Positions 3,001-47,551 of a stretch of DNA of 64,000 nt are shown in pieces. This DNA comes from Lingula anatina. Taxonomy: Eukaryota; Animalia; Brachiopoda. Positions within the stretch are counted from its first letter, which is position 1. Every line of letters begins with the position of its first letter. A program made the translations under genes and the position numbers. The stretch spans positions 22,816,001-22,880,000 of the forward strand of contig CM120645.1 in the NCBI GenBank assembly GCA_051362555.1, in the 5' to 3' direction. Under the pieces are notes generated by a model. That model saw nothing but the letters and a program-made list of their open reading frames with translations, was not told where the DNA came from and made no database searches.

Positions 3001-3784
3001 AGAATCCACGATGGACCAAGGAAGTTCTATTAAACTTGTCTCACATGATTCACCATTCATGTGCTGAAAGAAGAAGATATGGGAATTATGTGATATTTGA
3101 TATATATATATATACAGACAACTAGGAAGGAGGCATCACTTATCAATAATTCCAATAGCATAAAAAAATTGGTGTCCTTTCTTTAAAATTAAAAAATATA
3201 TATATATAAATAATTTTGGCTAAAATATGGATGTAAATACTGTAAAATCCTGCACTTAATTTAGTTTTAAAATGAAACAGATGATATGAATTCATTCCTT
3301 CAAATAAGAACTCCAACAACCAGAAATTATGAGGGCTGATTAAACAATGTGTGAGCAATAAGAAGATTAATTTACTCTAACAAAATAGTCAGCACAATAA
3401 ATTGTAGGTCAGATGAAATCAACGCACACCCCAAAATGAAATATGCATAGAGAAATAAATATTCAATAATCAGAAAATCTGGTGTGACTGATGTCGCTGT
3501 ATATCAAAAGTCCTAATAAGATATTCATACACTGTTCACGAATGATCAATAAATGCATTATGTAAGTATACTTTGAATAATTAAAAGAAACCATACAAGT
3601 AATTAATATAACATTTGCTCCAATAACTGCAAAATAATGGGTTATCAATTTTTCATAGAAATAATGGAATAAAGAGCAAAATTACCCTGCAGTATTGTTT
3701 GTAGTTGACCCTACGGCTGAGGTTCAGCTCCTTTCTTTCGTGCTCCCTCACGGGAGACAGATCGTGCGTTTCCACGTTCCCCAT
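5..3784 (-). CDS. Leucine-rich-repeat + ADP-ribosylglycohydrolase (ARH/DraG)-family fusion protein, 5' part; gene continues beyond the left edge
   Basis: Phase-consistent GT-AG exons: 3784-3686 (MGNVETHDLSP...YCR), 3063-2322 (~6 LRRs LxxLxLxxNxL plus linker), 1642-1467 (GLLYGAAIGDAIGLATEF...GDWTVDFDQC, ARH N-terminal motif), 1120-977 (FAKRLKHWSDHGFTELGD), 179-5 (...CDNAALSRCLVLG). About 445 aa lie in the window. Confidence 0.85.
338..768 (+). mobile_element. Possible solo LTR or other young insertion inside an older CCTATAGG-rich repeat
   Basis: CpG-rich block starting TGTTAA and ending TTAACTA, with AATAAA at ~726 followed by a GT-rich tract. CCTA(T)AGGA-type motifs flank it at 230-320 and 770-815. 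No TSD seen. Confidence 0.3.
1682..1907. mobile_element. Palindromic MITE, family A copy 1
   Basis: Inverted ends TTCCCAGAGATTTAGATCGATCTA / TAGATCGATCTAAAAATCTATGGAA; homologous to 43504-43746. Confidence 0.75.
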
Positions 3785-4072: not shown

Positions 4073-7000
4073 ATGGAAGGGTCGAATGGTTCAGGTATTT
4101 CTAACATTTGTTCTAACATATCGTCAAAACTGACTTACGATTCTACCTGTTATGAGACCATAGTGCGTGTTATTTGTGTAAATCGTCCCTTCTATTTTCC
4201 CAACATCAGTTCATGTTTATGCGATCAGTTTTTCATAGAAATGCCAACATATTTAGAAATTATCCAGGGGTGAAATTGACAACGCTCTCTCATGGCTGTA
4301 TCAATTTCACTGTCACTGGTAGCTTCAGCTTATGGTGCCACGTTTTTTTTGTAGATTATCAATTTCAGCATGTCAGCATGTAAGCAGTATTATTAAACTT
4401 TTGTTTTTCCTGTGAATGATATTTAAAACTTAACACAAAGTTTACTTTTAGAATTTGAGCAAGTCAGATGATGTTATATGATGAAATAATTGAGATGTTT
4501 TGTGGATAGTGTTTATTGGTATCAAAAAGTATTTGTTATTGTACATTGGACCTACTCTTCCTGTAGTGCAAATACTTTTGATTTTCTATAAGACAAACTA
4601 ATACCTGTACTTATCATTGGCAAAAAATTGTTCATTAAATTTTCTCATTGTGTCAGTTTGTTCCTGCCTTCTTCTCAGTAATGCTGTTATTGAAGAGAAT
4701 TCTTCGTTTCTCACCAAAATAATATGCTATTCATATGTGTTTATACTCATGTAGATCTAGAAAAAAATGAATATAAGTAGATTTTTTTCAAACTGTTTAC
4801 AGATGCACATCAACAAGAAAAAGGTGAGGAGGATGGTGCTGAAATTGAACAAATAATTGGTAAGCATTCTTTTAATGGAAATACATCATATTATATACAA
4901 AAACGGAAAAAGAAGGACTTAAAAATCTAGCAAAGGATACACTATATGTGAGATGTATAGAACATTTATGCGGTGAAAGCAAGAGACATGACTAGATTTA
5001 GTTGGTAACATTATTATATCAGATTTTGTTTTCAGTTTGTTGTTTATAATTTAACAAAGCAGAAGCAGATTAATATGTTAATTTGACATACTTATATTTT
5101 GAAACTTCTTTTTAGGAAAATAAATTGGCAACTTGAATGGTCCCATTCCGTTAGGTTAGTTTTTTTTTTCTTTCTTGATAATGGTGTTTATCTATTGTAG
5201 ATACTGAGAGAACCCCAGTACAGGAGACAGGATATGATTTCCCTCTCGGTAATAGAGAAGATGGTGCCACTCCCGGGAATACAGGGGATGACGGGGGAGG
5301 GGAGGATTCTTTGGAAGACTCAGGTATTTTACCAAGCAAGGTGCTATGGGTGAAAGGTTGTCAGGCAGGCCATAAAAGGGTCTAATTATTGTAATTTGTA
5401 TTTTATTTTATTCATATTTTTTTCCTGTTGGGAGAAAAAACATTTGTTATAACACACATAGCAATGTGTGTGAGTGTTTACATACATGCATATGTGCGTG
5501 CACATGTGTATATAAGCCAAGTGCTAACTATTGATTTGATTACAGCATTTATCTGGTTTTCATGCCATATGTTTCCATTATATATGGACTGCTCATTGAT
5601 CCAATATTAATGATATGATACAGTCATATATGGATTAATACTGAACCTTCCTAGTCATGTGATTAACTTGGCAAAATTTTTTATTCCAGATGGGTAGTTT
5701 ATGTGTGTGAGTGTTTCAGGCTTTCAGCAGATATACAAATAGTACAAATGATATTTAGAGAGGTTGATACATCAGTACGACTCATATATCTGTATGCAAA
5801 GTTACCAGAAAACTTAAGTTATTCAAACTCTTATTTTTATGGTAAGAATATTTAATTTAGTATATAATATCATTTTGATCAAGCTTTGCTTCATTAAAAC
5901 ATAACTACAAAACTGAGAGAAAAAATTCAACCATGTATGATCTTAAGGATAAAACTGAATCACTTCCCTAAGTTTAATTCTTATCAAAAATGAGCTAAAA
6001 ATTCTTCCAATCCCTTCCTGTTGCCAGGCAGTGAAAATGACAGCTCAGGCGGAGAGGAATCGGACGTAGAAGACAACTTCGATGACATGATGTACCCCAG
6101 TCAGCGTCTCCACAGGCACCCGGTGGACGAGCTGCCGAGAACGGTGGCCAAGCTGGAGACCAAGGACGGCTGTATGGTGTATGTGGTGGGCACGGCGCAC
6201 TTCAGCGAGGAGAGCCAGGAGGACGTGGCCAAGGTAAAGGTCATATGCTAATTAGTTATGGAATGTGAAAGAAATTTGGTTTAAGCTATTTCCCAGAGCA
6301 GTGTTAAGTTATTAGAAAAAAACTGATATGGAAAAAATGAAATTTGGGAGAGGAGTTTAGTTTAGATTGGAAAGTTGTTTAAACTAGAAATCTTGAGAAA
6401 ACGTGATATTGGACTAAGTAATCTGAAATATGTGATTCAGTATATTTACATCAATTACATATGTACATATCTACACTATACATTATATGCTATCTGCTCT
6501 CTGAATGCTGTCAGTGTTTCATTACTGATTCCAAAACTTATAGATCTACATAATTTTATTCACTAAATGCTTAAAATGACTAGAGTATCTATGCAACGTA
6601 TTATTTAGAAAACTTCAACTGAGCTATTTACTCTGTAAATTTGGCATAATTGTCTCCACACTTATATTTAAAAAAAAGCATTCCTCTTTACAGACCATCC
6701 ACGCTGTCCAGCCAGACATAGTGGTTCTAGAGTTATGTCGGAGCAGAGTGAACATATTGGAGCTGGACGAGAGCACACTGCTGCAGGAGGCTCAGAATAT
6801 TAACCTGCAGAAAATTAGGGTAGCAATAAAACAGGTACTTGGGGGTGTCAGGGGCACACGGTGCTTGAAATAAGATATTTGTAAATGTTGTCAACATGGA
6901 AAACTTTTTGTTGTAATATACAACTCAGAAAAACAAGAAAAATTAGAAATACTTAATAGACGTTCAAAAGACCAGTAGGGAACTTTAATTACTTGAGAAG

Positions 7001-7218
7001 AAAGTATTAAATAGTATATACATCTGTGTGAAATTGCAGTTGCCCATCTATAACAAGAGCCCAGTATATAATACATTGAATCAATTATATTTCAGAATGG
7101 CCTCCTCCAGGGAGTGCTCCATCTGTTGCTCCTCAGCATGTCTGCACACCTCACCAAGGAGCTGGGTATGGCGCCCGGTGGGGAGTTCAGGAGGGCTTTC
7201 CAGGAGGTAGGGTCCTCT

Positions 7219-7286
<68 letters not shown>

Positions 7287-8280
7287 ACATGTATGTATGT
7301 ATGTATGTATGTATGTGTGTGTGTGTGCCTGTGTGTGTGAGGGAGTTTCTGTGTGTGTGTGTGTGTGTGTGCATGTGTGTGTGTGAGGGAGTTTGTTTGC
7401 GCATGTGTGTGTATGTGAGAGCAAGAGAGATATACAGAGATAAGAGAAAGAGAGTGGTAAAGATTTATCAAACTTCTTTTCATATATGATATTTTTAAAA
7501 ACTTGAACCCCGCTTTTGAGCTAAGAAATTATTATAACAATCTGCATCACTACTGGAGTTTGAGTAACTTACTGTTTATCACTGATCCTGCTGTTATGTT
7601 CAATTATTATTGAAGAACACCGATTGACTGCATTCACATCTATCACTGTACAAAATGCTCTCCTTACAGGCTCAAACCATTCCAGGTTGCAGGGTACATC
7701 TAGGAGATCGTCCAATAGGAATCACACTAAAGAGGGCGCTAGGTGCCCTGTCATGGTGGCAGAAACTCAGGCTAGGTTTTTATATGCTCACAACTAAAGA
7801 TCCTATAAGGTAACTAGCTAGTTGTGAGATTTTATTAGAATTTTATGACTTAATTTATTCACCCTGCAACTTTTATCTCATAAGGGACAGATGATGTTTA
7901 GGTATGGGGCAGCTGGGTTAGAAGTTGTATTCATTGCCAGCAGTTGATCATCGTATTGATTTGATTATTATAAGTTCATATCATGGTGCAAGTTGAGAGA
8001 AGAGTACCTTCAAATCTAACATGCTTCAAGGGATGATATGTTTGTAACAGGCACTTATTTTTTCCAGCAAAGAAGATGTAGAGAAGTGCAAACAGAAGGA
8101 TCTTCTAGAGGAAATGTTGAAGGAGATGACAGGAGATTACCCTGCTCTTAGTACAGTGTTTGTACAGGAGAGAGACATATTCTTAGCTAATTCCCTAAAG
8201 ATTGCAGCACAGCCACTTCCTCATCCAGAGCTAGATGGAGGTGAGAGAGAATTAGACATGGTGTTGTAGGTCTTTATATG

Positions 8281-10329: not shown

Positions 10330-12404
10330 TGGAGAACTTTTATCAGTGAACTGGTGATTTGTAGCCCACCAGTCTTCGTAGCTGTAGTTATAAACATTTT
10401 TACTAAATATGAATGGTTATGATTATTTTTATGGTGTTCTCTCAGTAATAATAAGTGATGCATCATGTTATAAAACTGAACTTTCAGTTAATAAAAATAA
10501 TAATGGTAAAAGACTGTATGTGCAAGTTGAATTTTATGTCGTAGTTTTGGCTGCAGTGGAGTGACAACCTTACGTTTTTGAACATGTCAGTTTGTCATTT
10601 AACAATTTATAGGGTAACAAAAATTAACAAGGCTCTTAAACCCATGAGATTTGTCATGGTTCTCAGTTTTTATTTTTAAAATATTTACACCTACCTACAA
10701 AATATAAAACATTTAGTGAATTTAATTCTTGGTAATTCAATAATGCACAACTGTTAAATTCCATCTATTATAAATTGCAGTGAAAGTCTGAACAATGTTT
10801 TCTTCAAATGAACTTTTATTTAGTAGTCAAGGAAGACCAAACAGTAAATTGCATCTGTAAACAATTTTGAAATACAATAATTACACATAATTCAATAATT
10901 ATATATAACATTTGGTAGTTCAATATATTATGCAGAGACTGCTTTGATATTGTGAATTAATAATTATGACATAAAAACATTTAATGACATTGCAACACGC
11001 CGTGATATGATACAATATATATATATATTAATTATCAACAGTTAAAAGGGAAAATATGCAGATAACTAATTATGGTGGACATTTAATTTTAATAACATGG
11101 CTAACGACCATTTCGTGAAAAAAATTGTACTTTGAACTCATCCAACCAACTTTAAAATAGGCCCAAATATATGGGTCTCAAATATAAACTTTTCAAATAT
11201 AATATCAATTTTGTGTCAAAGTTAAGGAATGTTTCATTTGGGCCCAATGATAATTTACATTTCACAACCAACATTTGAAAAAAAAAAAAAATTTTAATTT
11301 TACTGCAATTTGTAGTAAAAGAGAAAATGCAGTGAATCATTTTAGTTGTCAAGTTGAAGTGTACCACTAATGGTTTTATACGGACTCCACTTCTCCCTAC
11401 TTGAAATTAAGTTGAGTCAACTGACTTTAAATCAATCAACATCTTGATAAAAATGTAATAAATTATACATTATACTAAACGTATACCTATACATAAAACA
11501 AATACCTGATTGTCGCAAACTAACTGTAAGGGTAAGGGTCCCTTATTTATGACCTACACTTCACAAAATGAGGAAAATGGCTCTCCCAGATTTTGCGTGC
11601 TAAATTATTTCTACAAAGTTTATATTTTTTACTGATCTAGGTCACTTGGCCCCCATATATTACTTTAATAAGGCACTGGTTTGGTCTCTACATCTGGAAT
11701 GGATTCAATATGATCACGATTCCAATGAATTAAACTGGAGAGGAATGTTGATATATATACTATGATAAATGGTAATACATTCTTCATACTGTTAAGACCT
11801 TTTTCCTTTCTATCAGGCCTTACTTAAGGTCTGTGTCCTTAAATCTTATAATATATTTTTATTTCACAACATTTGGTCTTGTTTGAAAAAATGGGATTTG
11901 TTGGACATTTTTTCATGGACTTGACATACATGTCAATCGGCCCTAACATGCCTACCTCTGATATTCCCAAGGGTATTGTAGCTTACTTAACCATGTCTGT
12001 AACTTATCAGACAAGCTCAAACAGACCTCCTTTGTCTTCTTTTCTTGCCCTGTGCCTGGTTAAATACACTTAAGTTTTCTTTTTCTGCTGGGTTATAACT
12101 AACCGCAGTTCATAATGCTATCAATTTTTCCTGAGACCCATTTGATAAGGCCTGTGTCTATTTGCATTCCTATTCCTGCTCACTAAATACCTCATACAAG
12201 TATTAGCTAATGTTGTCTCACTCTGGTGTTCTAAAACCAAATATCAATATTCAGTTAGGTGATACTGCTCCAGCCCTCTCTTAAAGGCCTGTGTAGCAAC
12301 TCTGTATCTGTCTGCTAATACAGATATATCCATTTAGTCCATATCCACTTCTTAAAGGCCCACTTGACTGTTTAACTGTCTGTTAAAACAGAACTCTAGT
12401 TGGT

Positions 12405-15400
12405 CTATGTCCACTTCTTAAAGGCCTGTGTGCCCTGGCTCTTCCACTCCTGTCTGGTAATACAGGTCTGTTCAAACACCCCCAGGTTGCCCAGGGTGCT
12501 GGCGCCAATGTAGGCAGCATGGTACCTCTGGGGGGAGGTGTGTACCTGGAGAGATAGGAACAGTAAGGGAGGATAATGGCACTGCAGATTTGTTCATATT
12601 TCTGTTACTACAGGTATAAATGATTTACAAACACAGACACACACAAATTAAATAAAAATAAAAAACTTTGGACAGTATAAAGTAGGACATGAGTGACTAC
12701 ACAAGTATCAAAATGATGGATTGTAAAATCTATGCAAGTCTGCAAGACAACAGATCTATGAGCTGTGGTGCATTATTGTGTTAGGTGTTACACCTCAGTC
12801 ATCTTCTTAGGTGTGACATCTTAGTCATTGTGCTAGGTGTGACACCTCAGCCATTGTGTTAGGAGTGACATATTTACCTGCACCACAATGGAAGAAGGCA
12901 CCAGTTTGGACAGTTCAATTTGTAATCTTTCAGCAAAGCCAGGCAGCATTGTGACTCCTCCACTCAAATAGATGTGTCTGGAATAATTCAACAAAAACCT
13001 GTGTCATACATATATTAAAGTAATCACTTAATTACCAGTAAAAAGAAGAAAAAATTTAAATGTCTCTACATAGCTGGTTGATACAAGTAACGGGTATGAC
13101 TAAGATCACTACTGCAAAGAGACAGGATAAGTTTCCAACTCCCTGTTATTTTTTGTCCCACCGTTACCTGTACATCTCTCTCCTGTGGTCCATGGGGCAT
13201 GCCTGCACTGCCTTGTGGACCAGTTTGGGCACCGTGGGGTTGTCCATCCCCCACAGCTCTGTGTTCATTAAACCCTCTGGGCTGATAAACCGGCCTGCCT
13301 CCAGGTCGACCTTCTCACAGGTGCCCTGAGGTACGTCAAAGTTGGTGAGATTCAGCGCCTTTCTGAACTCAGCTGGGTTTTTACTGCACTCCACCAGCTC
13401 CTGGTTGTAATCTGTGGCTACATAGCAGATCTGAAACAGACGAAAGTGAAGCTTTATCAAATTTTAAAAGTCTCTCCAATCACAGCACCATAGAAATTAA
13501 TGACAGTTATTTTCTTAAACATATACAACATATTTTCTAAATCAGACTCTTATTCATTCCCTCAATTTTTCAAAACTGTAATTTAATAAAATTCCATCTT
13601 GCTTATGAGAATGCCTTAGAACTAATGAACAAAGACCCTACTAACAGGAATGGACACACATCACTATACCAAGACATTCCTCATTCCTCAATACTCACCT
13701 GTTCCAGCACGTAACGGACTATCCATTTCTCCACCTCCGTTGAGAAGTGATACCTATTCTCCGTCAGTTTATGGTTGAGGTCGTCTGCCACCCTCTGCCC
13801 GCCATATGCCTGCCGCGTAAGACCAGCATCAACAATGTAACCTGAACAAGTTAATTATTTTGATAATCTAATATCACATAAATATATTTTGACATTCTTT
13901 ATAGTTTGTGTGATTTCTCCAGTAGGGACTTCACTCAGTAAGTGCAGCAATGAGATATTTAAATATCCTAGTATTATATCAATATATTATTTCAATACTT
14001 TTTAATAAGTGCAGCGTTGAGCTCTTTAAACATTTAAGTATTATATCAATATATCATTTATATACTTATATACCTTATGTGTGACACTTCACTCATTACC
14101 TGAGACCAGGTTAACACAAAAGTGTATATTTTAAATTAACTGACCATCAATAATAGGCACAATGTCCATCCTCTCCCCAATGTCCACAATGACCCCTGAG
14201 GAGTTGCTGTAGGAGTAGAGAGCCAGGATGGGCTGGGCCACCATACTGACCCCTATCACACTGTACTGGTCAATGAGGAGGGTCATCAGGTCCTCCTTCA
14301 GCTTGTTACTGTTCTGGGGGATACTCATCATCACCTGATGGAAAATGTGGATATAAAACAATTAACTAAAATTACTTTCCTCCATATCTTTCATCAGTTT
14401 ATCATGACTGTTCTTGTTGAAAATCAAAACAAAATGTTAAGAAATAGATCTTTGTAGAAGAAAAAAAAACAAATCAAAACACCCTTTTTGTGCAAAAAAT
14501 AAATCATGAAAGTGAATAAATGAAAAATATTAACAAGAAAACAGAGGTCTTCAAGAAACAACTGCACATTACTGGTATCTAGGAAATGATCTGAAGTTTC
14601 TTACCCAATGTTCTGCAGGATTTACTTGTAATTCCTGGAACACCTTCTCTAACACTCCAGGCAACAGCTCCAGGTCAAGAGTAAACTGAAAAAAAGAAAG
14701 TTTTAACAACATAAAAGACTAAGTCATGGTTCAATTTAATCTATATATCTGAGAACTTCAGCAAAATTAGTGTCTTCCTAAGGTGCTCCAACAGTAAACA
14801 TGAAAACACGCCCACACTGTAAAAATCTTTGTATGCTTTATAGGATGACTATATGTAAAAAAATAAATAAATAAATGAATAAATAAATAAATAAATAAAT
14901 AAATAAAATGAGGCCTCTTACCTTGTCCACCTTTATGGAAGGCTTTATGGGATGCATCAGGGTAGACCTGTCCCTGACATCAGGTTTGTAGGCATCAAAT
15001 CCATAAAACTTCTGTCCTGTTGTCTTGTTTACAGCCACTACACAGGGGAAAAATACCTGGGGAAGGGAAGCTGGGAGAGAAAATAAATTATCATTATTAA
15101 ATAAAACAACAATGCATATCTTAAAGAAATCAAATATCAGGTGATAAATGGGCAATTATTGCCCCCCAAAAAATGAAAAAATTATAATCTTTATGATAAT
15201 ACAATAAATATTAGATAATTGAAAATAAGAAAACCTATAAAATGCAAGTGCAAAAAACACACAGCTCTTTTTTTTTTTTTTTTGGTGGTTGTTGTGGGGG
15301 GTCTATAGGGCATAAATATAACCCCAAAATATGTGTTGTCTTTTTTTCTTTTTAAGGAAGACCTCATCTTAAATCAATCCCATAGTGACTTACGTTCCTT

Positions 15401-18400
15401 TCCCAGTAGCCCAGCTCTCACTGAACAGCTGCCGAGATCCAGCACTATCACCTTCTACACATGAAAATATTTAGATGAATGTATCAATTAACATCTTTAT
15501 CATGAAGGTTAAGAAAAAAGGTGTACAATAGCTAGCTGCCTGCAGTGTTAACATGTTGAGATAACTGATTAATATCTTTCAACATTAAATTCTATGTAAA
15601 AATCTACCTGTTCTCACTTACTCTCACAAATACATTTCTGCAAAAAATAATTAAGTTCCTTTTAAATGAAAAAAAAAATGAAAAAAAAAAAAAGAAAGAA
15701 AGAAAAAATTATACGTGTTATCAAACAAAATCCCAATATACATGTACATACCCTTGTTTTATGTGGCGTTGGTTTAAGCACTGGGCGCACATATGTAGCC
15801 TCACTATGGTCTGCGGTCTGTGACTCCAGCGCCACCTTCCAGTCATTATATTCTCTGTCAGTGGGACAGCGTACCATGAGATAATGACCTCGCTGTGGAT
15901 GCAAAAATATTTGATCATTAGTTCCATTAGTTATTGACTTATACAAGCCATTAAGGTTATGTTTAAGTAATTTAACAAAACAACATAATAAATAAATAAA
16001 TGAAAATAAATTCACAAATAAAATAAAAAAATAATAATAATAATAATAATAATAATTTATTTTTCTATGGCGCATTCCATTAAAAATCTCAATGCGCCTT
16101 ACAACATTCACTTAAAAGAGCTAAATAACACAATACTAATATAAGAACACATTACAATTTTAAAGGACTAAGAACTAATTTAAAGAACCAATTATTCATA
16201 TTCTAAAATGATAAGAACCTAAAGTGACAACATTTAAAATTAATCATAAAATTACAGTACACCTTATTAAAAACTAAAATTAACTATATGATGAAAATAT
16301 GAAATGAGATCTAACATGCTTTGCAAAATATATTAATTTTTTTTATGGCCAGAACTATACAGGAATGGCAAAGGTTATATCCATCATACTGCTTTGTAGT
16401 TTTATCTTTTCTGAAAGCATAATTAGCTATATATCATCCACTTCTGAAAAAATTAATTTTTATACAGATCCTTACCCCATCATCAATCCCCAATACTTTC
16501 CCTCCAATCTCGTCCACAGTGCCCCCCATTAACTGGACAAACCCACTGGGGCGGTCCTGTCTCTGACTCTGGAAATATCATAGGATACAGGTAGATATAG
16601 GAGAATGTCATTGTGTTACTTAGCTGGGGCAGTTTATTTATCTTTCAACTTACGAATTGAGCACTATTTCTATTCACATCAAAGCTTGTAAAAAAGGCAA
16701 AACAGGGTGGCATCATGGAAGAACTAGTCCCTGGCTAGACAGTATGTGCGTGACTGTGTGCAAATAAAAATATATATAAACTGAAAACAACAGAAGTCAA
16801 ATAGTAGTTTGATGATATTGGCATATTCTCCAAATATTACACATCTAGATATTGCAAGCAAGGTCTAAACAGAGCCAAAAGGTTCACATAAGACAGAGTG
16901 ACCTTACACTGGTGATGGTACTACAATATAACACCCATGAAATATCCAGTGACTTAACCCTGGTGACAGTACTGCAATATAATACACTGAAATTAAGTGG
17001 TAATGAAACTTTGTCTATGTAAAAACCTAGCATTTTCTTCTAATCAAAAGCCATTTTTCCAAACTTCTTAAAAGGTTTTTTATGTGTGCTAAGCTATCAA
17101 ATGTTTCACAAAAAAAAAAAAAAAAAAAAAAATCAAGCTGGCACAGCAAATCTTTTACTATAACAGACATAAGGCATATATAGCTGCTATTATCACACTT
17201 AAATTTCCAAGAATGGCTTTAAATTTACAACTTCACCTTTCCTTTAATAACTTTGTTTGATTGCCTTAAATACATTTTAAGTTCCATAAATACTGCACTG
17301 CTAACTATCACAGTATTCAGTGTTACCCTGGTCCAAAATTAAGCCATAAGAAATAGTATACTGGTACCACCCGTAGAAACAAAACATTTATATACGAAGT
17401 CATGATTCTGACAAGATATATAATATTTTGTACAGGACAACAACAATATTGCATATGAATAAACATACTGTTCCCCACACACTGTGAAATGTTAGTAGGT
17501 ATTGGGCCTATCCCCTTTTTAAAAAAATTGTAACCACACTAACAAAAGGTCACCTCTTGAGTGTTAAGGTTTTTGGGTCTTTACTCACAATACCAAGACA
17601 TGTTACTGGGGAGTGGGTATTGAAAGAATAAGTATTTGAACCCTTAAGTGGTCTGGGACCAACCATTTTAGTAATTACAAAGGAATGGGTGGCTCCAGGC
17701 ACAAGCCTGTTAAGTAAGAAAATGTGAATTAAAAAATAGTATTGGAAATCCGGTCCGCCTTTAAGTGGTAAATAGCGGGTGGAATTTTCTGAAAAAGTGG
17801 ACCATTTTAAAGTGAATTTACATGTTTTCATATAACTTAGATTAAATTTGGATTCAGAGTGGAACTTCTCCAAGGCAAAAAGGACTGTCAGTGTTTAAAA
17901 TTAATAGTAAGGAAACAGACTACCCTTCTCTGTGACTCAATCCAATGGGACGTGCTCTGCAAAAAGGTTTCAAAAGGGTATTACATTTAACCAGGTCAAT
18001 TTTCCATCTTGATATAGACATGTATTTTGGTTAGTAATAAACCTTGATCAGTTCACCAACTGTATACAACAGATACACTGTGAATACGAGACCTAGTACG
18101 CCAAGACAACTTGAAGCTTGGGCAATAAAACACAAGGTACCAAGGAGTGTTAGTGTGTTATACTGAACCAGGGACCCCCAAATAGCTCCAAATTCCTGCA
18201 TGAAATCAATGGCTGCAATGGCTGAACACATAGGCAACACAACATGTAGCCATGGCAACATAACATGTAGCCATGGCAACACAACATGTAGTCATGGCAA
18301 CACATGAAGCCTTGACAACATTACCTACCTCCGTGTCCTAATTTGTAAAGAATGAAGAAAGTGTACTTTGAGTTATTGTTAAGTTTATGCTGTGAAGTTA

Positions 18401-21400
18401 AAAAAAAACTTATTTACTAATAAACAAAAAAATGTTTTACTTCATTGCCTTTTCTAACAAAAAATGGCATAGCATCTTATTCATACTGACGTTTTCTTAT
18501 TTTAAAGTATCTAAAATACATTAAATCTACAGTGCTAGCAGCATTATTGCAATAGAAGGGGTAATCTGTGTAACTGATACAGAGTCTTTTGTGCAGGCTC
18601 TCAATATAGTATTTAAATGATCCTTTACCTTTAAAGAGTAATATAATAAACAATATCTGACCTTGTGTTTTTCTCTAATGTTTGTCAACATCACTTCAGT
18701 TTTAGTTACCAATTTTTAAACTTACGTCATAGTAGAACAAATTTCCTTCTTTGGCTCGGAAGTATCTTTTCTTCCATGTTTTAAGCAATGTAGCTTTTTT
18801 CTTTCCCATGGGTAATTTCTCCATGTAACCTTCCATGGTAATGAACTTCGTGGCAAGGTCTTCATCCTCCTGGACACAAAATAAAAGTAGAAGTCAAATG
18901 GTGGTTAAGAGACTACTTTCTAAATCTTAACAACTTGGTGATATACGTAATCATTTTTGTCTTGGTACTTTACACAAACCAGGAATAATTTACCTTGTAA
19001 TTCCTTATCAATAAGACTGTTCATGTTGCCAAAGAATTTACTTTACTATTACTTTACTACCCAGAGTGAAAATCATTCACAGGTCTACCAACACCCATCG
19101 ATATGTGGTCCCGATTTGTGGGCTGAAACATACTTCCACTAATATTTTAGTAAGTGGTTACTATCACTCAAAGGTCAGTTAATACTTGTAATTCTTGTTT
19201 ATGTTGATAAAAATGTTGACAGGATTGTTTACAAATTATTTTAGTTCATCTTAAATGAGAAAAATAAACAATAAATATCTGTCAGAAAAACACATACCTG
19301 AGGTTCAAGTTTTATTCTATATATCTCCTTCATCAATTTCACCTACAAAAGATATAAGACAAGGAAAAACTTAAACATTGAAGTGACAATAGTATAATTA
19401 TGGAAATGGAGTATGGAGAAACGTCTTCATTCCATCGTTTTTTTTTTTCTTTTTTCTTTTTTTTTCCTGTGACCAACTAAAACGATGTACAGAAAGGTCA
19501 CAATGCAGAGTTCACTACTTAAAATATATTCAGGAAGATCTTAAATATCACCCAAAATCATAATAATGGGGATACAAAGAACAGGCTAAGAAAATAGTCG
19601 ACAACACTTTAATAAATGAAAAATAGAGAAAAAAATATATATATAATAAGAAAATAGACCATAGTAAATAAATGAAAAATCAAAAAGATAAATTGTGTGG
19701 TGAAAACTGCCATGATAGCAAGCAGACATGAGGGGCTGAACACCTGCTACCATGACCAATATATTTACACATATTAACACATATATTTGGCTGACCTATT
19801 GGTACAGTATACTGACATTTAACTCTCCAAGGTGTGGCACCTTGGCAGGCGTCAAGCAGAAATACGCAGACATGCACTTTTGGCAGTGACGTTCAAGGAT
19901 GTTAGAGCTTTTTTTTTTTCTTAAAATGGATATCTACGTTAAAGTTGGAGACCCATATTTGTACATATGGCAGTAATGTTTTATCCCCTTTGCCTTCCAT
20001 AAGTAAAACTACAACAAATTGAAAATTTAATAGAAAGATTAACACAGGACATCCAGACAAAACAAAAATATGGTTTGGCAGTTTAAGGGTAAACAACAGC
20101 TGTGCAGGACAGCAACTTATACACACAAAGGGATCATTATATATATATATATATATATATGCAGTACCCGTGTGATAGAGTAGAAGCATGTGAAAAGATT
20201 AACAAAAGTCAAGAAGAAAGACAGTCAGATTCAAAAGATCAAAATTCAATTAGTGTCAGAATGCCATGAAGAGGAATAGAATTAGAGAATACTAGAACAG
20301 CGAAAGTTTAGTGGTAAATAAAAAACAAACAAACAAACAAACAAAAAACAATCATTATGGTTACAAAAAATTACAAACAATGCTTACAGGATCCCAATTC
20401 TTCAAGGTCACCCTTGGCTGCACTATTTCTTCCTCCTGGTCCACCTCGCCATCTACCTCCCCTCCTGAAGAGACACAAAATTCACTACTATCACATGAAC
20501 ATTCTGTGGTATCTCCTCCATACCTGGAAGAGCCGCTGAGGCTGCTATAACAAGTGGACGCACTCCCCCCAATGTGCCTTTTCTTGAGTGTGACATAGGG
20601 GGTGGCATATTTACTACTGGAATCATCAGAATCTGGGTATTTTTGGGTACTCAGGGTGATTTTGCTCAAATACTGTGGCCCTGAACTCTCCTCTTCTCTG
20701 CCATTTTGTTTTTTTCGCAGGGTGATCAGACGGACCGCTTTTGATTTTCCGCCAGGCCCCAGAGTGCTGTGACTCCTGTGGACCCAATCATTTCGTAAGA
20801 AAATATTGTTCTTATTTAGACCACCAGTTGGGCTGGGAGCGTCCTCCACCTCGCCTTCCTCGCTGTCAGTGTCTGGTGGGATGTGGAGAGCAGCTATGCT
20901 TTTCGCCCTTTTGCCGATGCTTCCAAAACTGCTTTTCCATCTCGTTGGCGGTGATGGCGGGACCAGTTTGAAGGTGCCCAAACCAGTGAAAAATTTCTCC
21001 ACAGCTGGTGGGTTTAGACTAGAAACAGAAATTGGTGATCTGGATCGACGTTTGTCTCTGGGTGAGGAGTTCTTCACATATCTCCCTGATAAAGTTTTAG
21101 TGGACTGCGGCAAAGTGGTGTAGTTTTTGTCGTTCATACTAGCGCTGCCACCTTGTGCCCCATTTTGCCAGTAAACGATCAGCTTACGACAGCTGCTCAT
21201 TTTGAAGGAAATATAACAGGGTTTAATCCAAATGTACCCTTGTTAAAAGCATAGCTACTGTTGGCCTAGTGCATTTATCAACATAAATTCGTTGCAATAC
21301 AATTCTTTTCTGAAATGATAGTTCCCTGATCTGACTTGTTATTTTGCAGATGCTGGTTTAATATTGATGAAACTGGCACAGATTTTTCTTCAATCCACTC

Positions 21401-24400
21401 AATGTAAGTTGGTATAATAGTTCCACAACCTGCATCTTTGTGCCTTGTGTCACATTAGTAATGAATGAAGAAAACTTCAGTCAAAACATTACATATTGCC
21501 CAGAGATTACTGCGTTAAGATAAAACACAAAATGCACGACACCTATGAAGCTGATATTCCTGTTTCGTAGAGGTAAAACTGCCCACTAGACACATCTAGT
21601 TCTTCTCCATTGCTGCTCACAGAGACTGGTTTTTACCCAAAAAGTCATGTAGAAATAAGTCAGTTACTCCTTTTTAAGTAGTTATAACAAAAGTTCTGCA
21701 TTTATGATCTGTCAGCAATAAGTCAACTACTAACTATGGCATCTATGGTATTTTACGCAGTTAATTAATCCTCTTCCTCAAAAAGCTAAAAAAAGGTTGT
21801 GAAGTTGTTATGGATTCTGTACAAAATATTAACAATTTGTTTGTATTCCTCAATTTTTTTTTACTGTACAGTCAATTTCAAATGGTCCTGATGGAAAGAT
21901 TTCCAATGTAACTGCAATCCCCTCCAACATTTAAATCCTTCCGAGTTATGCACTGTTCCCAATCTTCATATCTTCCTACTTGTTGACAGGATCAGACTTC
22001 ATCCTGTAAGATACTGCATCCAACAGTAACTGCACACACACACAGAGATCATCTGTATTCTAATAACTAAAGTAATGGCCTGTCACAGCTGCCGTCCTCA
22101 AGATCCTGACCTGGGAATGCTGGGAAGATCCTCCATCTTGACAGCTGCTACAGCGGACTTGCGTCAAGGAGAGCTAAGAAAAGGCCCCAGCATGTCGTCA
22201 CGGCAAGTGGCATGTCATCGGCCACGCCAAGCTAATTATGGGGCAGATCAGTTAATTGGATGAGAGCATGACCTGTTACTTTAATTTGAACACCAATTAC
22301 ATTTCTTCCACCTTTAAAAGGCATTAATAAGCAAATCATTTTTCCAGTATCAAAAACTGAAGATAACAGTTTACCCAAAAGAGTACTTCACAATATGTCT
22401 TATTATATAACTTTTCAGTGAAGAGAAAGAACAAAACTGCCTACTTAATTCAAGCCAGCTTTTATCAATGACGTTACAATTCTTTAAAGCCATGAAATCA
22501 TCGCCAGGTGTTACACAAGATGTCACCATGATCAATTCAAATTATAACAGTTCACAGGCAGTGACAACATGTTATAAGACATTGAGGTATGGGCCAGTTT
22601 ATAGCTCAGATAGATTTAAAACCAATTCAGTAAAAGAGTATACCACCCATCAAATGATATATTCATTCACCGGTATCATGTCATGAGAGATACTTGTATC
22701 AAAATTCAGATCCAACATTGGGACAAAAATGTTCTAGTATATTTAGATCTTATTCCCAATGAAACTATTGTACTATGGCCTCATTTAGAAGAGTGGACTA
22801 ACTAGTCCGAGTGTCAAATATAGCCAACCCACTTGCATACTTCCCTATAGGATATCTATTCAGTGTCTAATAACAGATTAGACGGCAAGCTTTATAATGG
22901 GTCACCATATTTGACCCTCGGACTAGTTACTTCACTGTTCTGAATGCGGCCTTTGTAAACTGATCCAAATAAGTGCATTCAGCAAGAGTCCCCACAGTTT
23001 TCTTCCTAGTGTTGAGTAGAATACAGAAAAACTGGTACACGAGAAACACCCCTGTAACAATTACAGTCAACTTTTTCCACTACTCTAAAATAATTTTAAT
23101 TACCCAAGAAATTAACCAAACAAACCTTCAAATCATTATCTTAATTTGCTCACCTGTATATGTATTCCATATGGGCAAGACATTAAGGTCAAATAAGACA
23201 CAATTTATGGAGAGAGAAAACGATCATAAAAAATAACTTTCAATTACAAACTCTTAAAAACTGACATTAGGAACTAATAATGTAAAGTTGGAGATGGCTC
23301 CAAGTCTTTTTCATGACGTTTAATAGCAGTAACAGTGTGCAAGATGACAAATACGTCACAAATGGAAAGCAACTTTTTTCCACGTTTTTCCACATGTTAC
23401 GCGATAATTGCTGGATGTGTCAAAGTGCAAGGCTAGATGTCAATTATATACATTAATATGCTAATAGATATCCACAGCTTGTTAATACCAAGTAATATTC
23501 TGTCTTGCATAAAAATGAGATTTCAATTATTTAAGGTTAATGGTGCAGCTAATTGATTTACTGCTAATGACAAATCAGTAGCAAGTGGCAAAAATTTAAA
23601 GACATTTTCTAATAACTTATCAACAAAATCTGCTTAATCAATGTTGTAATGTTGTAATCAATGTAATAAAAAAAAATTGCCCCAAAAAATAAAAATAAAA
23701 CTTACCAGAATTATACCAGGTGCTTGCTGATTTTGAAGCAGAAACAGCAGATTCCTTCTTTTCCACAATCTCCTTCTCAAAGACACTGTTCTTACTCTCT
23801 TCCTGCTTCACCGCAGATTTTTTTGTAGCCCGTTCCTCCTCGGCCTTTTTTTCGCTGATAACTTTGACACCTCCGCTCTTCTTTGGTGGAGGCTGAGAGA
23901 CGGCCTCAACAGTTTCCTTCTCTATATGGTTCACAGACATCTCCTCCACTTCTGGCAGAGATTCCGCAGAGCCATTTACAAGTGCTTCTGATTGGTCATT
24001 TACTTTGGGCTTTTCTTCACCAAGCGTAATTTCTGCAGCAACTTTGTGACGTTCATCAGAGCCTTTGTTTTGTGTGTTCTCAGAACTGTGAGATGGTTTG
24101 GAAGGTTCACTTGGTGGTTTCACATCACCTACTCTGTCCGTCTTTTCAATAATTATCACATTTTTCACTGGAATGTTTTTGGATACTTCAGCATCAGGAG
24201 GACTTTCATCTTCACTTTGACTTTTTCGTTTCTGAGCTTTTATATTGCTAAATGCCACCTGGGCAATGGCGTCTGCTTTAGCTTTACGGTCCACAGATGA
24301 TTCACGTATAAAATCCTTTCCATCCGGAACTGCCTGTACTGTAGGGGCAACGGTTTTCTCAACAAGGTCATCCTCTTTGGTTTGTGAATAGGACTCAGGT

Positions 24401-27400
24401 TTGACAGAGAGTTTTGTATCAGTTTCAATGTCATCTGGGACTGTTATGAAAAATTTCTGTTCCTCCTCATCTTCATCACTTTCTTCATAGTCACTATCAT
24501 TTCCTGCCCCACTTTCCCTTTTCTCATCATTTTTCTTACCATTAGAGGAATCATTCTGATCAATTATAACAACGTCTGCAGAGTGAAAGTTTCTAATCTC
24601 ATCTGGAATGGAATTCTCCTTCTCAATCTTCAAAGGTTTCACAGTAAGTTTAGGAGAAGAGGTCGTAACAGTACTATGGTCATTTTTGACCCCCTGGTCA
24701 ACGTGAACTGAGCCATTGGTCGCCCTTGCTGGCTTGGGTGGTTTTTTCTTGGTCTCAGCTTCAGTATTTGGTACATCTTGGATTTGGACACTTGGATGGA
24801 AAGATTGCTGCAATAAAGAATACCAAACTAGAAATCCAGAATCATCAAGTGTTTATACTTTCAAACTATGATCTGCTACCTTGATCTAAGCAGAAATCAG
24901 AATGTCTTTAATCACAACTATTTATGGTCCAAAAGACCCCACCTCCTTGTAAAGAGAAGTGCATTATGTGCCCCTTTCAGCTAACACAATTACAGCTTCA
25001 GTCTCTGCAACTTAGATATATGATTGCGTTTGTTGTGACATCACCAAGAACACAATCTCTATCTAAACTACCATAAATACCACAGACCGTAACTTTTATA
25101 ACAACTTGGAAATTTACCATTTTTTTTCCAATTTTTTTGAACTGAAGATTTTTTGGAGACAATATATTTATATCAATCTCAACCTCACCTGACTGAAACA
25201 TTTCATATTCCTTCCCATGAGCATTTGTAACCTGTTCTGTGATAGGACGAGCTGCTCAGAGATTTTGTCCTGTTCGGCAGAGTTGTCCGGTGCCTGCGCG
25301 AGCTGGACAGTCAACTGGTTGAAGTGTTCCTGTTCTCGCGCCATCTCCTTCTGTAGCAGTGATAAGGTGGTGATACAACTCTGGAAGATGAATGATAAAA
25401 TATTCATGTCTCATAGGAAAAAATATTAGCCTTGAAACAATATGACTTAGTTTTCCTTGAAATGGTAACTCTGACAGGACTCAACTTAATGGAGAGAGAG
25501 AAAAATGGCCTCGATGAAAAATATTAGCCTCACTATTAAGTGCGCTGGAACAGTTCAATCATAATTATACAGAAATTGCTCACACTTGCTAATATTATAA
25601 TTAACACTACTTGTGTGGACAAATACAGCAGTTTCAACCATTTTTAATATGACATACTGACAACTCAATGTTCAAAATTCCCATATTAGATCAGTAAAGA
25701 TCCAATTCATGCAACCCATGCTATTACATGCAATTTTTATGAGAAAATAAAGAACAACTTGTTCCATTCCAATCACTGTTGTTCTTTTACAAGGCTTCCC
25801 AAAAGTAGTTTTTTTTAAATATCTCATTAACCTATTTTTTTCCAAGCTAATAAATTGTCAAACACAAACTACCTATGAACTTGTTATGTATCCGTATTTT
25901 GCACATAGTATTTTGTACATAGTTTACCTTTTAAGTAAAGTCTATAGCATTTCTTCTCTCTTACAGAAACCTAGTCGACTCAAACCTGATAAACCCTTCT
26001 TCTTACTATTTACAGACACTCCTGCTTAAATGTACATAACCATTCAACTCTAATGAGAATCTCCAGATAGAACTCCAAGAGTTATCAACCTATATTAACA
26101 CTAGAGTACAGTGTCTGTCTATTTTATATATGCATGCTGTAAAACCTCAACCACTGAATGATGTGGCCAAATTTATAAATGTGCTGGCATCTTTGTTGGT
26201 AATGTTCCTTTTTATAGCTGAGTTTACGTAAATAATTAAGATAAATGTGTAGAAAAGATAACACAATGAACAGAAGTGTAGCATTTTTTGTAAAAGACTG
26301 TACAAAAGCTTTTCATGTAAGTCTTGTTTTATATGCACAGATAAAGTATGTTTTACAGTTACAGTAAGGTTAATGTCCGTCTGTGTCATAAAACGCGGAA
26401 AACATGGGGTCACAAGAGAAAAACGTTTCTGTTGATTTTCTAATCTTTGAATGATCCAACTTCAAAGTGAATAGAACAAGCTTTTTATCTTGACTTATGG
26501 AACAGCTAAAATAATTGATAAAATGGGATTATACTGTCAAAAATAATCTACTAACAGGTGCCCAGTTTTGATATGTAAACTTGTGCCACAATAAAGACGC
26601 TGTATCTTACTGATGTATGAGTACAAAATTATTTCTTTGGCTTAGCTCTCTGTTTGTGTGGTCATGTTGGGAAAATTTTCCCATCAAAATTCTCATAAAA
26701 GTTTGTGAGAAAAAATATTTCCAATTTCCATAGCTCATAAAAACATTGGAGTACCCTTTGATTCTGACAACATAAAAATACAGTGTTGGCTGGAGGCAAA
26801 AGCTGTCAACTTCAAAGTTCAGATCCAAGGTTTAACATGTTGATTATTTAGGCAAATCATAAACTACATTATTTGCTCCCTAATTTTATACCAGTGTAAT
26901 ATACACAGCTTACAACTTGCATAACTGTAGACAGACTTATCATGAAAAAGAAATGGGTTAGATATTAGATATTCATTCCAAACCATGTCACTCTTTATAT
27001 TCAATATAGCCTAAAAATATAATTAATATAACTGGAGACATGATAATGAGATCATGAATTATTCACTTTTAATACTTTCATAACAAGACAAAAAAAATCT
27101 TGATCAATAATCATTAAATATATTTATATAACTAATACCATAACAATTTTCATGTGAAAACATCATGCCTTTAGTATGACAGTTACTGGTAAAACATAAC
27201 AAGTAAATAAAAATAATGAAATTAATTTTAAATGCAAAATATTAGGCAAACGTCATCATTTTAAACCCCAAATGTAACTGAAGAAAACAGTCAATTGAAC
27301 ATAACAGAATATAACTGTATTCACACAAGAAAATGCAACCCAGTCTTATAGTTCTGTATTATTAATTAGTGAGAATTGTAGTCATTTTAATCAGAAAGTT

Positions 27401-29390
27401 ACCAGTGGGGGAGACACCTCTTTAACAAAAAATTCTGAAATCTGACAGTTTTAACTTTAAGACAAGGGTTTCCCCAGAAAAAAGGCCCACATGTCATTCG
27501 GACAGCCACTGGCCTCAAAAGGTAGCCTTTATTTATTTTTTAAGACGGCTGGACAGCTTCCGAATTTTTTAGGAAATCACAGGTTGGGGGCTTGACTTGC
27601 TTGGGTTGGACTCCCCATAAATTGGTGACAAAATGACAGATTCACATTTTGGACTCCCTGTGCCCCAAATCCTGGGGAAACCCCTGCATTTAGACCAGAT
27701 TTTAGTCTGATATGACTGGGTGTAAACCAGGGACTTCAAATGATGGAGACCAAAGATTTCAAACTCTTGATATAAACAAACTTTTGGTCTAACCCTCCTT
27801 TGTGAAACTGTCCTAGGAGAGAGGAACGCAACAACACTGGCACAGTGTTTAATTACAATGATCATGTTTACAAAACTAGGGTTGAACTGGCTTGCACTTT
27901 TTAGTGTGAATGAAACTAAGAACTCAATCCCAATTTGAACATAATGACCTGTTCATAACAATATACAGGGCTCAACATCCATGTGGTATTTCTTCTTGTC
28001 TTAAGTTTTTTTTTTTTTTTTTGAAATAAATTAAGATGTATGAGGAAAATCTCTTACTGAGAAGATCAATGATGAGCCCTATATCTTGAATAAAATAAAG
28101 TTATACAAGGCATACACAATCTTCTTTAAATAAAGTTTTGAACAACATTGTCTGTCAATAGTGACAGTCTTTCAACAACAGACAGTGAGTCCAAAAACAA
28201 ATAAAATAAAAAATATTTGCATGTGAATATAAATTATCTTAACTGAATGTCAAATAATCTTTAGAAGTTTTTTTTTTTAGAAAACTTTCATCAAAAATTA
28301 TTAATTCATGCATGTTACATGCCTGTACCTACCATCTGATCCTGAATATAAAGAGAAATAGTTCAACTTATTAAAATTCTTTCTCTGTAACATTTTCAAA
28401 TGATTCCAGTGCTGTTTAGAATATAAATTTATAATGCTTAAACTGTTATCTACCAATTCTTTCATTAGAAAAAAAAACTTAGATGTAAGAATATGTGGAT
28501 GAGAGAAATGCCCCATTTGCCAAAAATAATGGGGGAGGGGGAGAAGAAATTACGAGATAGAAAAAAAGTGCAAAAAATAAAATAAATCTTTCCTCACAAG
28601 GCCTTAACTAGTTTTTAAAAATGAGAGAAAGAAAAAAGATGAAATAGTGAAAAAAAAAAAGAAGAAAAAAACAGACAGAAATTGCCTGACAGGTCCACAT
28701 AGATGACCAGTCATCAATCAGAGCAACAATGACACAGATCAATCATATTATCCTCGCAGCTGACAGAGACACTTAGGGAGGTCATTCGACCCTTCACGCC
28801 TCCCTGACATTAATGGCTACCTGCAGGGTATGGGTGGCATGTCCACCATGAGCAACGTGCTCCCAAATTATCATGATCTGCTTGAGGCACTAAGTGACAT
28901 TTTTCTTTGAGACAACATCAGAAGATTACGTTGTGCATTTAAAGTAAGAGGTACATATAGCTTTCAAAGAAAGTCATCTGGGCTGGTGAATAACTTTATC
29001 TTCTAAAATAAGAGTCAAAATATTTTTTTAAAAATACTGTTACACTGTAATATTGACAAAGCTCTTCACGCATGCAATTTATAACAGTAAAACATCAATT
29101 ATTCTCCCTGGGTTCCAGTTGTCCACAAAGACAAAATTGTCTACTTATCCACTTCTTGCTAACACCACCAGCCTTTACAGCTCAAGTTTACAAGGGTATC
29201 TAGGAAAACAAGATTACCTCCAGCTGAAACAAAACCCAGCGCATTACATTAAATTTTGCTTTCAAATCATATTAATAAGCTAAATAGTTCAGTAAAAAGA
29301 GGTCCAAGATACCTGCATGTCCAGCTGTCTGACCAGGAGGTCAAACTGGTCCTCGCTACAGTTCAGGATGTCTCCGCCACCGCTGTCCAT
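12405..29390 (-). CDS. PH domain + actin-related (actin-fold) fusion protein with N-terminal coiled coil and long acidic disordered linker, ~999 aa, 16 exons
   Basis: Exons 29390-29313, 25380-25189, 24807-23706, 20464-20388, 19342-19298, 18869-18726, 16568-16476, 15892-15752, 15454-15394, 15070-14922, 14685-14605, 14334-14145, 13841-13699, 13430-13168, 12977-12878, 12545-12405 total 3000 nt with all phases matching. An in-frame TGA lies upstream of the ATG. PH: EGYMEKLP...TWKKRYF...EYNDWKVAL. Actin: VIVLDLGSCSVRAG, QPILALYSY..GVIVDIG, ICYVATDY, IYLSGGVTMLPGFAERLQ, AAYIGASTL. Confidence 0.88.
12770..12870. repeat. ~26-bp minisatellite, about 4 copies
   Basis: Repeated CATTGTGTTAGGTGTGACACCTCAG units in the last intron of the PH-actin gene. 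Confidence 0.8.
18228..18320. repeat. 21-bp minisatellite (ACATGTAGCCATGGCAACACA), about 4 copies
   Basis: Direct reading; explains the MLPWLHV repeat ORF. Confidence 0.85.
20388..21200 (-). CDS. Probable alternative first coding exon of the PH-actin gene (short isoform, ~787 aa)
   Basis: 271-codon open frame from ATG 21200 (upstream in-frame stop) reads through the internal acceptor at 20465/6 in the same frame to the donor at 20387. S/P/K/R-rich disordered sequence. Confidence 0.65.
22777..22951. mobile_element. Palindromic MITE, family B copy 2
   Basis: GGCCTCATTTAGAAGAGTGGACTAACTAGTCCGAG / CTCGGACTAGTTACTTCACTGTTCTGAATGCGGCC inverted arms. Confidence 0.75.
27463..27686. mobile_element. 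MITE with hAT-like 15-bp TIRs
   Basis: CAAGGGTTTCCCCAG ... CTGGGGAAACCCCTG (1 mismatch); a related right end occurs at ~33930-33992. Confidence 0.65.
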
Positions 29391-41619: not shown

Positions 41620-41676
<57 letters not shown>

Positions 41677-47020: not shown

Positions 47021-47551
47021 CTAACAAGTGATAGACACCGTAAAGGTCCCTTCTCTGGTGTCGTACCCGTACACACCTATTGCATACGTTCCAATGGCTA
47101 GCTCTCCTTCGGGAATCTGAATCAAAGAGGTGTAACCAGAACACCTGTTGTCGTAGTCGTTATAGTACAGACTGTACTCTTGGTAGATGTTGCATGTCTG
47201 ACTCCCACCGGATTCAGTATTAGACAACGCATCACAGGCAAAAAGAGCCAGCTTTGTGTCGTAGTCGGCGGTGTTACATGTGGATATAATGACATCGTTG
47301 CACCCGGTGTAGCTGATGTAGTATCGCAACTGTGCCAAATTGACGGCGACAAATTGATGGCTGTCGGTGAAGGTGTAAGCTGTACCATCACACGTGACTT
47401 GTTGAACATCCGCTGAAAGTGACAAATATACATATTTTAAGTTTCACATTGCCCACCAAAATGAACATTTAAGTACTTATAATAATTTATTCAGCCATTA
47501 TATAATATATATAGGAAAATGGATTATGTAAGAGCTATAATAATAATAATA

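Follow-up and report, generated by a model that had tools for sequence, protein, structure and literature searches.

The window analysed here is a 64,000-nucleotide stretch of the genome of the brachiopod Lingula anatina (assembly GCA_051362555.1, contig CM120645.1, positions 22,816,001 to 22,880,000). It contains a gene whose product joins a pleckstrin homology (PH) domain to an actin fold; a query with exon 14 of this gene returned a single L. anatina protein, LOC106163389, annotated as 'uncharacterized'. The gene lies on the minus strand in 16 exons (29390-29313 to 12545-12405), separated by GT-AG introns of matching phase and reading as 999 open codons with one stop, at 12405. An earlier first-pass annotation, made from the letters alone, had proposed these 16 phase-matched exons, which were thus borne out, and the six motifs that it quoted were all located on the minus strand between 18821 and 12938. 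It had overlooked a 17th, optional exon of 9 nucleotides at 28341-28333. The RefSeq models XP_013396401-8 have the same structure as the 16-exon model, and RefSeq also holds a second, partial Lingula record of 135 residues that is 98.5% identical.

Raw RNA reads from seven of nine listed runs under the same species label were aligned to the window; the reads are short, come from other individuals and are 88-99% alike to it. Read joints were found for 14 of the 15 exon junctions. The junction between the PH and actin parts (15752>15454), named beforehand by the first-pass annotation as the one to look for, was joined by reads in 4 of 4 runs, and 23705>20463 in 3 of 4. Among the read joints listed, exon 1 was connected to exon 2 only with the micro-exon between them. 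Its letters stand between 29312 and 25381 in three reads of read set X1 and two of X2, and the RefSeq isoforms X1 and X3 carry a matching insert of three residues that isoform X2 lacks. At 14922-14685 we saw only loose read ends, resembling by eye the end of exon 10, next to a masked repeat. Short reads alone do not prove a single full-length transcript; the RefSeq models share the structure. A gene model that wrongly joined a PH gene to a neighbouring actin pseudogene might be argued from the shortness and divergence of these reads and their origin in other individuals, but it is refuted by the read joints across the PH-actin junction together with the conservation of the arrangement across phyla: the PH domain is covered by the alignment in 103 of 113 family rows, the remaining 10 being truncated, split or aligned from the actin domain only. 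We give this artefact practically no credence.

The window allele differs from the RefSeq allele (P0001, whose numbering is used for residues of the Lingula protein) by 37 residue differences, a 6-residue indel and the 3-residue micro-exon. The linker of 385 residues accounts for 30 of these differences, the core of 519 residues for four and the first 95 residues for three. Among the best-supported read variants listed, synonymous changes made up 34 of 38 in the core and 7 of 12 in the rest. Because so few residue differences and so many synonymous variants were found there, the PH-actin core is taken to be under purifying selection.

On P0001, Pfam places a PH domain (PF00169) at residues 506-598 (36.9 bits, cut-off 25.1) and an actin domain (PF00022) at 622-993 (E 1.6e-59; 202 bits over model positions 5-406 of 410). 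The AlphaFold2 model consists of a confident two-helix hairpin (residues 25-58 and 64-94), about 350 residues with a predicted local distance difference test (pLDDT) below 50, a short helix (481-487), the PH domain, with seven strands and a C-terminal helix (586-599), and the actin fold. The hairpin is predicted in place of the coiled coil announced earlier, and the long acidic disordered region is predicted to be disordered but has only mild acidity (D+E 20.5%, K+R 14.6%). The tryptophan of the PH C-terminal helix, W592, is present in 119 of 120 homologues, and a W-[DN]-P helix motif (W478, P480 and Y488; counts in Table 1) precedes the domain. A naturally short orthologue of 529 residues was predicted with a pLDDT of 94 and a predicted template modelling score (pTM) of 0.89; as two independently moving domains would be expected to lower the pTM, helix, PH domain and actin fold are predicted to pack as one rigid unit, with the reservation that the pTM expresses model confidence only and the actin surface covered by the PH domain is not visible from it. 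The hairpin and the PH-actin core, predicted as a complex without an alignment, gave a score of 0.18 and a mark of 0.34, and residues 1-100 had no usable match in the ESM Atlas. One candidate contact between the PH domain and the plug, G558-E887, ranked fourth in covariation (221 rows, about 133 effective) but was held in none of 11 independent pairs; it was rejected and the signal put down to shared ancestry.

The model was compared with solved structures. Foldseek matched it to actin (E 3.7e-32, root-mean-square deviation (rmsd) 2.1 Å), and the matches listed were all actins (1.9-3.0 Å, 27-29% identity); the complete actin fold claimed at the outset was therefore found, at about 2 Å and 28% identity. 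A fold search of 48,161 representatives placed an actin chain first (Z 42.8, 1.5 Å, 343 aligned residues, 32% identity), followed by the actin-related protein (Arp) Arp3 (Z 37.3, 2.8 Å, 364 aligned, 24%) and an Arp4-complex chain (Z 35.6, 2.3 Å, 357 aligned, 20%), and the orthologue model returned the same order. These searches were run with the whole model and were filled by actin-domain matches; the Arp chains listed below actin had Z of 26-37 and 17-24% identity, Arp1 and Arp2 not being listed separately. The best 60 PDB sequence matches listed were likewise all actins. On these models the ranking speaks against placing the family in any of the Arp classes listed, though it is no substitute for a tree.

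Within the gene, three side observations were made. A Ser/Lys/Arg-rich frame of 285 codons on the minus strand (20465-21242) runs into exon 4; it has read depth in X1 and X2 and almost none in X4 and X7, has no homologue among the proteins compared, and may be an alternative first exon giving a short form without the hairpin and acidic linker. At 12388-12461, around the stop codon, the last codons are imperfectly repeated in the window, and reads of X7-X9 jump back there by 74 bases; this is a polymorphic tandem duplication in the 3' end of the gene. The intronic stretch 16100-16270, with read cover on both strands in X7-X9 and loose ends, is probably a repeat transcribed elsewhere.

Of 7,869 candidates, 132 matched in a search with residues 495-996. 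Species names were available for 66 of the best 120 of these 132 and belonged to molluscs, an annelid, nemerteans, a bryozoan, chelicerates, a myriapod, crustaceans, mayflies, odonates, echinoderms and hemichordates. In a profile search of 1.84 billion representatives, the best 150 clusters (50% identity) comprised 117 of the PH-actin family and 33 nearer to actin, so this listing ran beyond the family's edge. Names for six of ten deep or nematode-like members (Salpingoeca urceolata, Hartaetosiga balthica, Porites lutea, Sycon ciliatum, Pristionchus fissidentatus and Mesorhabditis spiculigera) extend the named range from choanoflagellates, a sponge, a coral and nematodes to molluscs, arthropods and echinoderms. 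The top ESM Atlas cluster was a mostly nematode actin-domain cluster of 557 residues (score 0.97). In an actin-domain tree (376 columns, LG+G4; 41 rows hand-chosen from 142, with the canonical Arp1-11 left out), 30 members formed one branch against 11 actins and divergent actins (support 100/99), within which bilaterians (100/98) and protostomes (100/99) were grouped; the exact position of the nematode members was not fixed. Judged from its sequences, the PH-actin family predates animals. No chordate and no holometabolan insect was among the named family matches listed, and a 142-row FastTree tree had no unnamed row inside the deuterostome branch; the family was likely lost in both groups.

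Ahead of the PH domain the family varies. The exon 2 hairpin was found, where names exist, only in bilaterian members. Seven choanoflagellate-branch proteins were scanned, and five of them have SAM, PX or EH domains in this region; the EH and PX matches are clear in P0211 but weaker in the other proteins. The upstream part reaches 2,000 residues or more in some members. Calling the protein an 'orphan' was wrong as to rarity, since the family reaches choanoflagellates, and right in that it grouped with no characterised family in the searches made. Its members are already in databases as 'uncharacterized', as 'PH domain-containing' or mislabelled 'actin'. P0013, P0020, P0029, P0034, P0079 and P0081, for instance, bear the labels 'actin', 'POTE ankyrin domain family member J-like' or 'SETMAR', and such labels help to hide the family. 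In the literature searched, which did not extend to subscription journals and bioRxiv supplements, we found no study devoted to it, and the part available of a review of actin evolution has no mention of 'pleckstrin' (PMC12050087). What is new is thus the family itself, how old it is and how it is built; the sequences were already on record. Ten unnamed proteins outside the family (P0239, P0240, P0241, P0244, P0249, P0251, P0253, P0255, P0256 and P0274) have two to three tandem actin-like domains and may be real fusions or gene-model joins.

The Caenorhabditis elegans gene F42C5.9 (WBGene00018349) has been annotated with an actin domain (PF00022) and a pleckstrin-like domain (IPR001849) (PMC2694363) and as 'Actin-like PH domain' (PMC3651406). 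By this annotation it has a PH and then an actin domain, as in Lingula. Proteins of Pristionchus and Mesorhabditis fall inside the PH-actin family, and F42C5.9 is likened to them by architecture, so that its putative orthology rests on this likeness and on the other nematodes in the family, not on sequence comparison. F42C5.9 fused to green fluorescent protein (GFP) was seen at the muscle cell membrane and at filament-like and dense-body-like structures, with the caveats of tag and over-expression (PMC3096668). RNA interference (RNAi) placed the gene in category 1, the mildest class of myofilament defect (PMC2694363), and made it a weak modifier of neuroblast migration in mab-5(gof) only (80% versus 92% posterior), the wild type being unaffected (PMC3651406). 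It was a 'foundling' match in a screen for antifungal signalling in immunity (PMC4850687), and its abundance was higher after Cry5B feeding (PMC9704757). F42C5.9 is known from screens only; with its localisation and RNAi data, the statement that no characterised protein has this architecture needs softening. Nematode-branch members differ from the Lingula protein in having no basic PH motif and no match to the hairpin.

For residue counts at the functional positions of actin, 113 family members were aligned to actin. Identity to actin is 30% for Lingula and 23-36% over the family. Core nucleotide ligands are kept, namely D/E11 (108 members), G13 (108), Q137 (112; Q752 in Lingula), G156 (113), D/E157 (105), E214 (105) and G301 (113), as are D154 (97), R210 (106) and G302 (105); retention of the Q137 equivalent and of the adenosine motif had been read correctly from the Lingula sequence. 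So had the shortened D-loop and the missing His73: D-loop positions 44-47 are gaps in 106-108 members, the loop being about 8 residues shorter, and the sensor loop is replaced, histidine falling in the poorly aligned His73 column in nine. His161 is present in none of the 113. MAFFT gives a gap there and HMMER aligns D775; at the position as aligned by HMMER, 93 members have Asp or Glu. Ala108 is kept in three and is Pro in 100, and the 108-111 loop is changed. In F-actin, a flip of His161 driven by Ala108 triggers hydrolysis upon polymerisation (PMC10062479). As His161 is absent and Ala108 mostly replaced, this trigger is lost, with another route of hydrolysis possible. Actin-type filaments are unlikely because His161 is lost and the D-loop and sensor loop are rebuilt; the earlier label 'non-polymerising' agrees with this family-wide loss of polymer and hydrolysis-trigger features.

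The protein might instead build short filaments of its own or two-dimensional membrane arrays through rebuilt contacts, like Arp1, MreB or FtsA. Four family-specific surface residues are nearly invariant (R674 in 106 members, W889 in 103, D/E892 in 113 and Y760 in 105), and 'filament-like structures' were reported for F42C5.9::GFP (PMC3096668). However, the D-loop core is missing, His161 and the 108-111 loop are changed, and a docked PH domain, preceded by an N-terminal extension that can reach 2,000 residues or more, fits a scaffold better. We hold such self-assembly to be very improbable. H952 and H959 are further family-specific near-invariants.

Mean identity to actin was 18% on the pointed face, 24% at cross-strand positions and 46% on the barbed face (27% overall), the barbed-face set including structural residues and having no burial control. 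On the barbed face Y143 (92 members), G168 (107), Y/F169 (95), D288 (107), R290 (111) and F352 (96) are kept, and Y166 (5), E167 (15) and D286 (7) are mostly lost. The asymmetry between the two faces would suit a single-chain, membrane-tethered pointed-end cap or nucleation seed, whose actin-like barbed face accepts an actin subunit and whose degenerate pointed face blocks growth in the opposite direction, much as in Arp11 or Arp2/3. Actin being the closest solved fold, ahead of Arp3, is consistent with such a role, as are the filament-like localisation and category-1 myofilament defects of F42C5.9. Against it stand the three lost contacts and the low cross-strand figure; moreover, this groove is also retained in nuclear Arps, where it binds helices, and dense bodies anchor barbed, not pointed, ends. 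We consider a cap or seed unlikely. The same doubt attaches to a bolder version, a further pre-animal Arp class that is a one-chain, membrane-anchored pointed-end cap or nucleation seed in which the PH domain would read the lipid and the docked actin fold would template or hold a filament, which would act at endocytic sites in choanoflagellates but at the attachment sites of muscle in animals, and which would have been overlooked as vertebrates and flies lost it.

The basic signature of the PH domain was present as announced: the KXn(K/R)XR motif lies in the β1-β2 region of the Lingula protein as K513..K528-x-R530 and occurs in 59 of 90 non-nematode members; over all 90 the β1-β2 region has a mean of 6.7 Lys/Arg. 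This motif has been described as a predictor of 3-phosphoinositide binding (PMC9258823). It is a weak one, present in most PH domains whether lipid-binding or not (PMC8282632), and recruitment of the Lingula protein by phosphoinositides would rest on it. The PH exon alone gave only weak matches in the PDB (best E 0.073), so no lipid specificity was drawn from its neighbours.

Beyond what is observed (the gene with its splicing, both domains, and the family with its residue pattern), the reading that we prefer, at about even chances, is a membrane-attached Arp that serves as a scaffold without forming filaments. The rigid PH-actin unit would sit on the membrane, its basic PH pocket binding acidic lipids. 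The cleft would bind ATP or ADP in a structural role, without the hydrolysis that polymerisation triggers in actin, and the conserved groove between subdomains 1 and 3 might bind a helix of a partner that ties cortical actin or the trafficking machinery to the membrane. The lineage-specific N-terminus would choose the site or partner, through the hairpin and disordered linker in bilaterians and through SAM, PX or EH domains in the choanoflagellate branch. In favour of this reading stand the purifying selection on the core, the confident fold of the short orthologue, the kept nucleotide ligands, the lost hydrolysis trigger, the D-loop gaps and uneven identity to the faces of actin, the basic PH motif, the SAM, PX or EH domains and the localisation of F42C5.9::GFP to the cell membrane and to filament-like and dense-body-like structures (PMC3096668).

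Several points weigh against this scaffold. Phosphate-1, described at first as kept, is so only in part: in Lingula Gly15 is Cys and Lys18 is Arg, and over the family Gly15 is kept in 3 of 113 members and Lys18 is Arg in 104. The alteration of phosphate-2 noted earlier is family-wide, with a hairpin one residue shorter and Arg, His or Lys at 773, the Gly158 position, in 107, and Lys336 is kept in none; because of these changes a nucleotide may be bound weakly or not at all. In a set of 67 human PH domains the basic motif failed to separate binders from non-binders (PMC8282632), and none of 13 nematode-branch members has it. Membrane localisation, however, was seen with an over-expressed, GFP-tagged nematode protein, which is set beside the family by annotation, not by sequence. 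The limits given above for the pTM and the barbed-face figure belong here too.

The nematode counts would be expected of a signalling or trafficking adaptor without contact to F-actin, whose PH domain binds proteins and whose actin fold is a nucleotide sensor or docking block, possibly with a slow ATPase of its own. Asp or Glu stands at the position equivalent to His161 in Hsp70, ParM and FtsA, as it does by the HMMER alignment in most of the family, where Gln137 is also kept. The match of F42C5.9 in the antifungal-signalling screen points the same way (PMC4850687). Its place at filament-like and dense-body-like structures and its myofilament RNAi defect do not, nor does the basic β1-β2 region of non-nematode members, and we rate an adaptor of this kind as improbable.

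The features of the gene are collected in Table 1.

Table 1. Exons and optional parts of the Lingula PH-actin gene, in window coordinates.
Feature	Position	Strand	Evidence
Exon 1, start codon at 29390; first part of N-terminal helical domain	29313..29390	-	Exon model; reads at 29312
Optional 9-nt micro-exon, 3 residues	28333..28341	-	AG/GT flanks; reads; RefSeq isoforms
Exon 2, predicted helical hairpin	25189..25380	-	pLDDT ~95; matched in 38/119 homologues; profile matches
Exon 3, disordered fast-evolving linker	23706..24807	-	pLDDT <50; matched in 0/119 homologues; read joints
Exon 4, linker end and start of conserved W-[DN]-P helix motif	20388..20464	-	Read joints; W478 117/120, P480 114/120
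Exon 5, remainder of conserved helix	19298..19342	-	Read joints; Y488 in 116/120
Exon 6, PH strands 1-3 with K513..K528-x-R530 (P0001 numbering)	18726..18869	-	Pfam; alignment
Exon 7, PH strands 4-6	16476..16568	-	Reads; structure model
Exon 8, PH strand 7, C-terminal helix and link to actin fold	15752..15892	-	Joint to 15454, 4/4 runs
Exon 9, phosphate-1 loop of actin fold	15394..15454	-	Reads; alignment
Exon 10, shortened D-loop and rebuilt sensor loop	14922..15070	-	Reads; alignment
Exon 11, actin subdomain 1	14605..14685	-	Reads; exon model
Exon 12, altered 108-111 loop, Gln137 equivalent Q752, shortened phosphate-2 hairpin	14145..14334	-	Reads; alignment
Exon 13, subdomains 3-4, Arg210 and Glu214 equivalents	13699..13841	-	Reads; alignment
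Exon 14, subdomain 4 with short insert; plug with family-specific W889 and D892	13168..13430	-	Reads; alignment
Exon 15, adenosine loop, Gly301-Gly302 equivalents	12878..12977	-	Reads; alignment
Exon 16, C-terminus and stop codon	12405..12545	-	Reads; exon model
Open frame upstream of exon 4, in-frame ATGs at 21200 and 21137	20465..21242	-	Reads in X1 and X2

Elsewhere in the window, leucine-rich-repeat protein exons and an ADP-ribosylglycohydrolase domain, possibly of one gene, lie at 2257-3135 and 1377-1700 on the minus strand. Three exons scanned at 5994-8266 on the plus strand had no Pfam match; we take them to resemble a TraB-domain protein. An exon of PPP4R2 (protein phosphatase 4 regulatory subunit 2) with acidic exons downstream is found at 41616-44528 on the plus strand. 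Two minus-strand frames had no Pfam match, one Cys/Tyr-rich with 140 codons (47024-47443) and one of low complexity with 574 codons (59861-61582).

With conventional actin the PH-actin family shares the fold and the core nucleotide ligands, and actin is its best sequence and structure match among solved proteins; actin differs in its full D-loop, His73, His161 and Ala108-Pro109 loop and in having no N-terminal PH domain. Like the canonical Arps (Arp2/3, Arp1 and Arp11 of dynactin, nuclear Arp4-9), the family is ancient and conserved with a divergent actin fold. Nuclear Arps and Arp11 have also lost polymer features, and we know of no canonical Arp with a PH domain. Dictyostelium filactin and primate POTE-actin have extra domains ahead of the actin fold, with different partners and narrow ranges. 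Arps are usually divided into ancient canonical classes and young germline offshoots; among the latter, non-canonical Arps such as Drosophila Arp53D are fast-evolving and germline-enriched, and in Arp53D an N-terminal extension on the actin fold targets the protein (PMC8291977). In contrast to the Arp53D type, the PH-actin family is, by its named members, neither young nor lineage-restricted, being pre-animal and reaching from choanoflagellates to echinoderms, and its extension is a folded PH domain.

The PH-actin family appears to be an unnamed Arp class of pre-animal age that fits neither of these groups: it is conserved, has invariant residues of its own and links a domain of membrane type directly with an actin fold. 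With it, the first animals would have had one more class in their actin toolkit, and it is open to study through a C. elegans gene of the same architecture for which GFP and RNAi reagents already exist.

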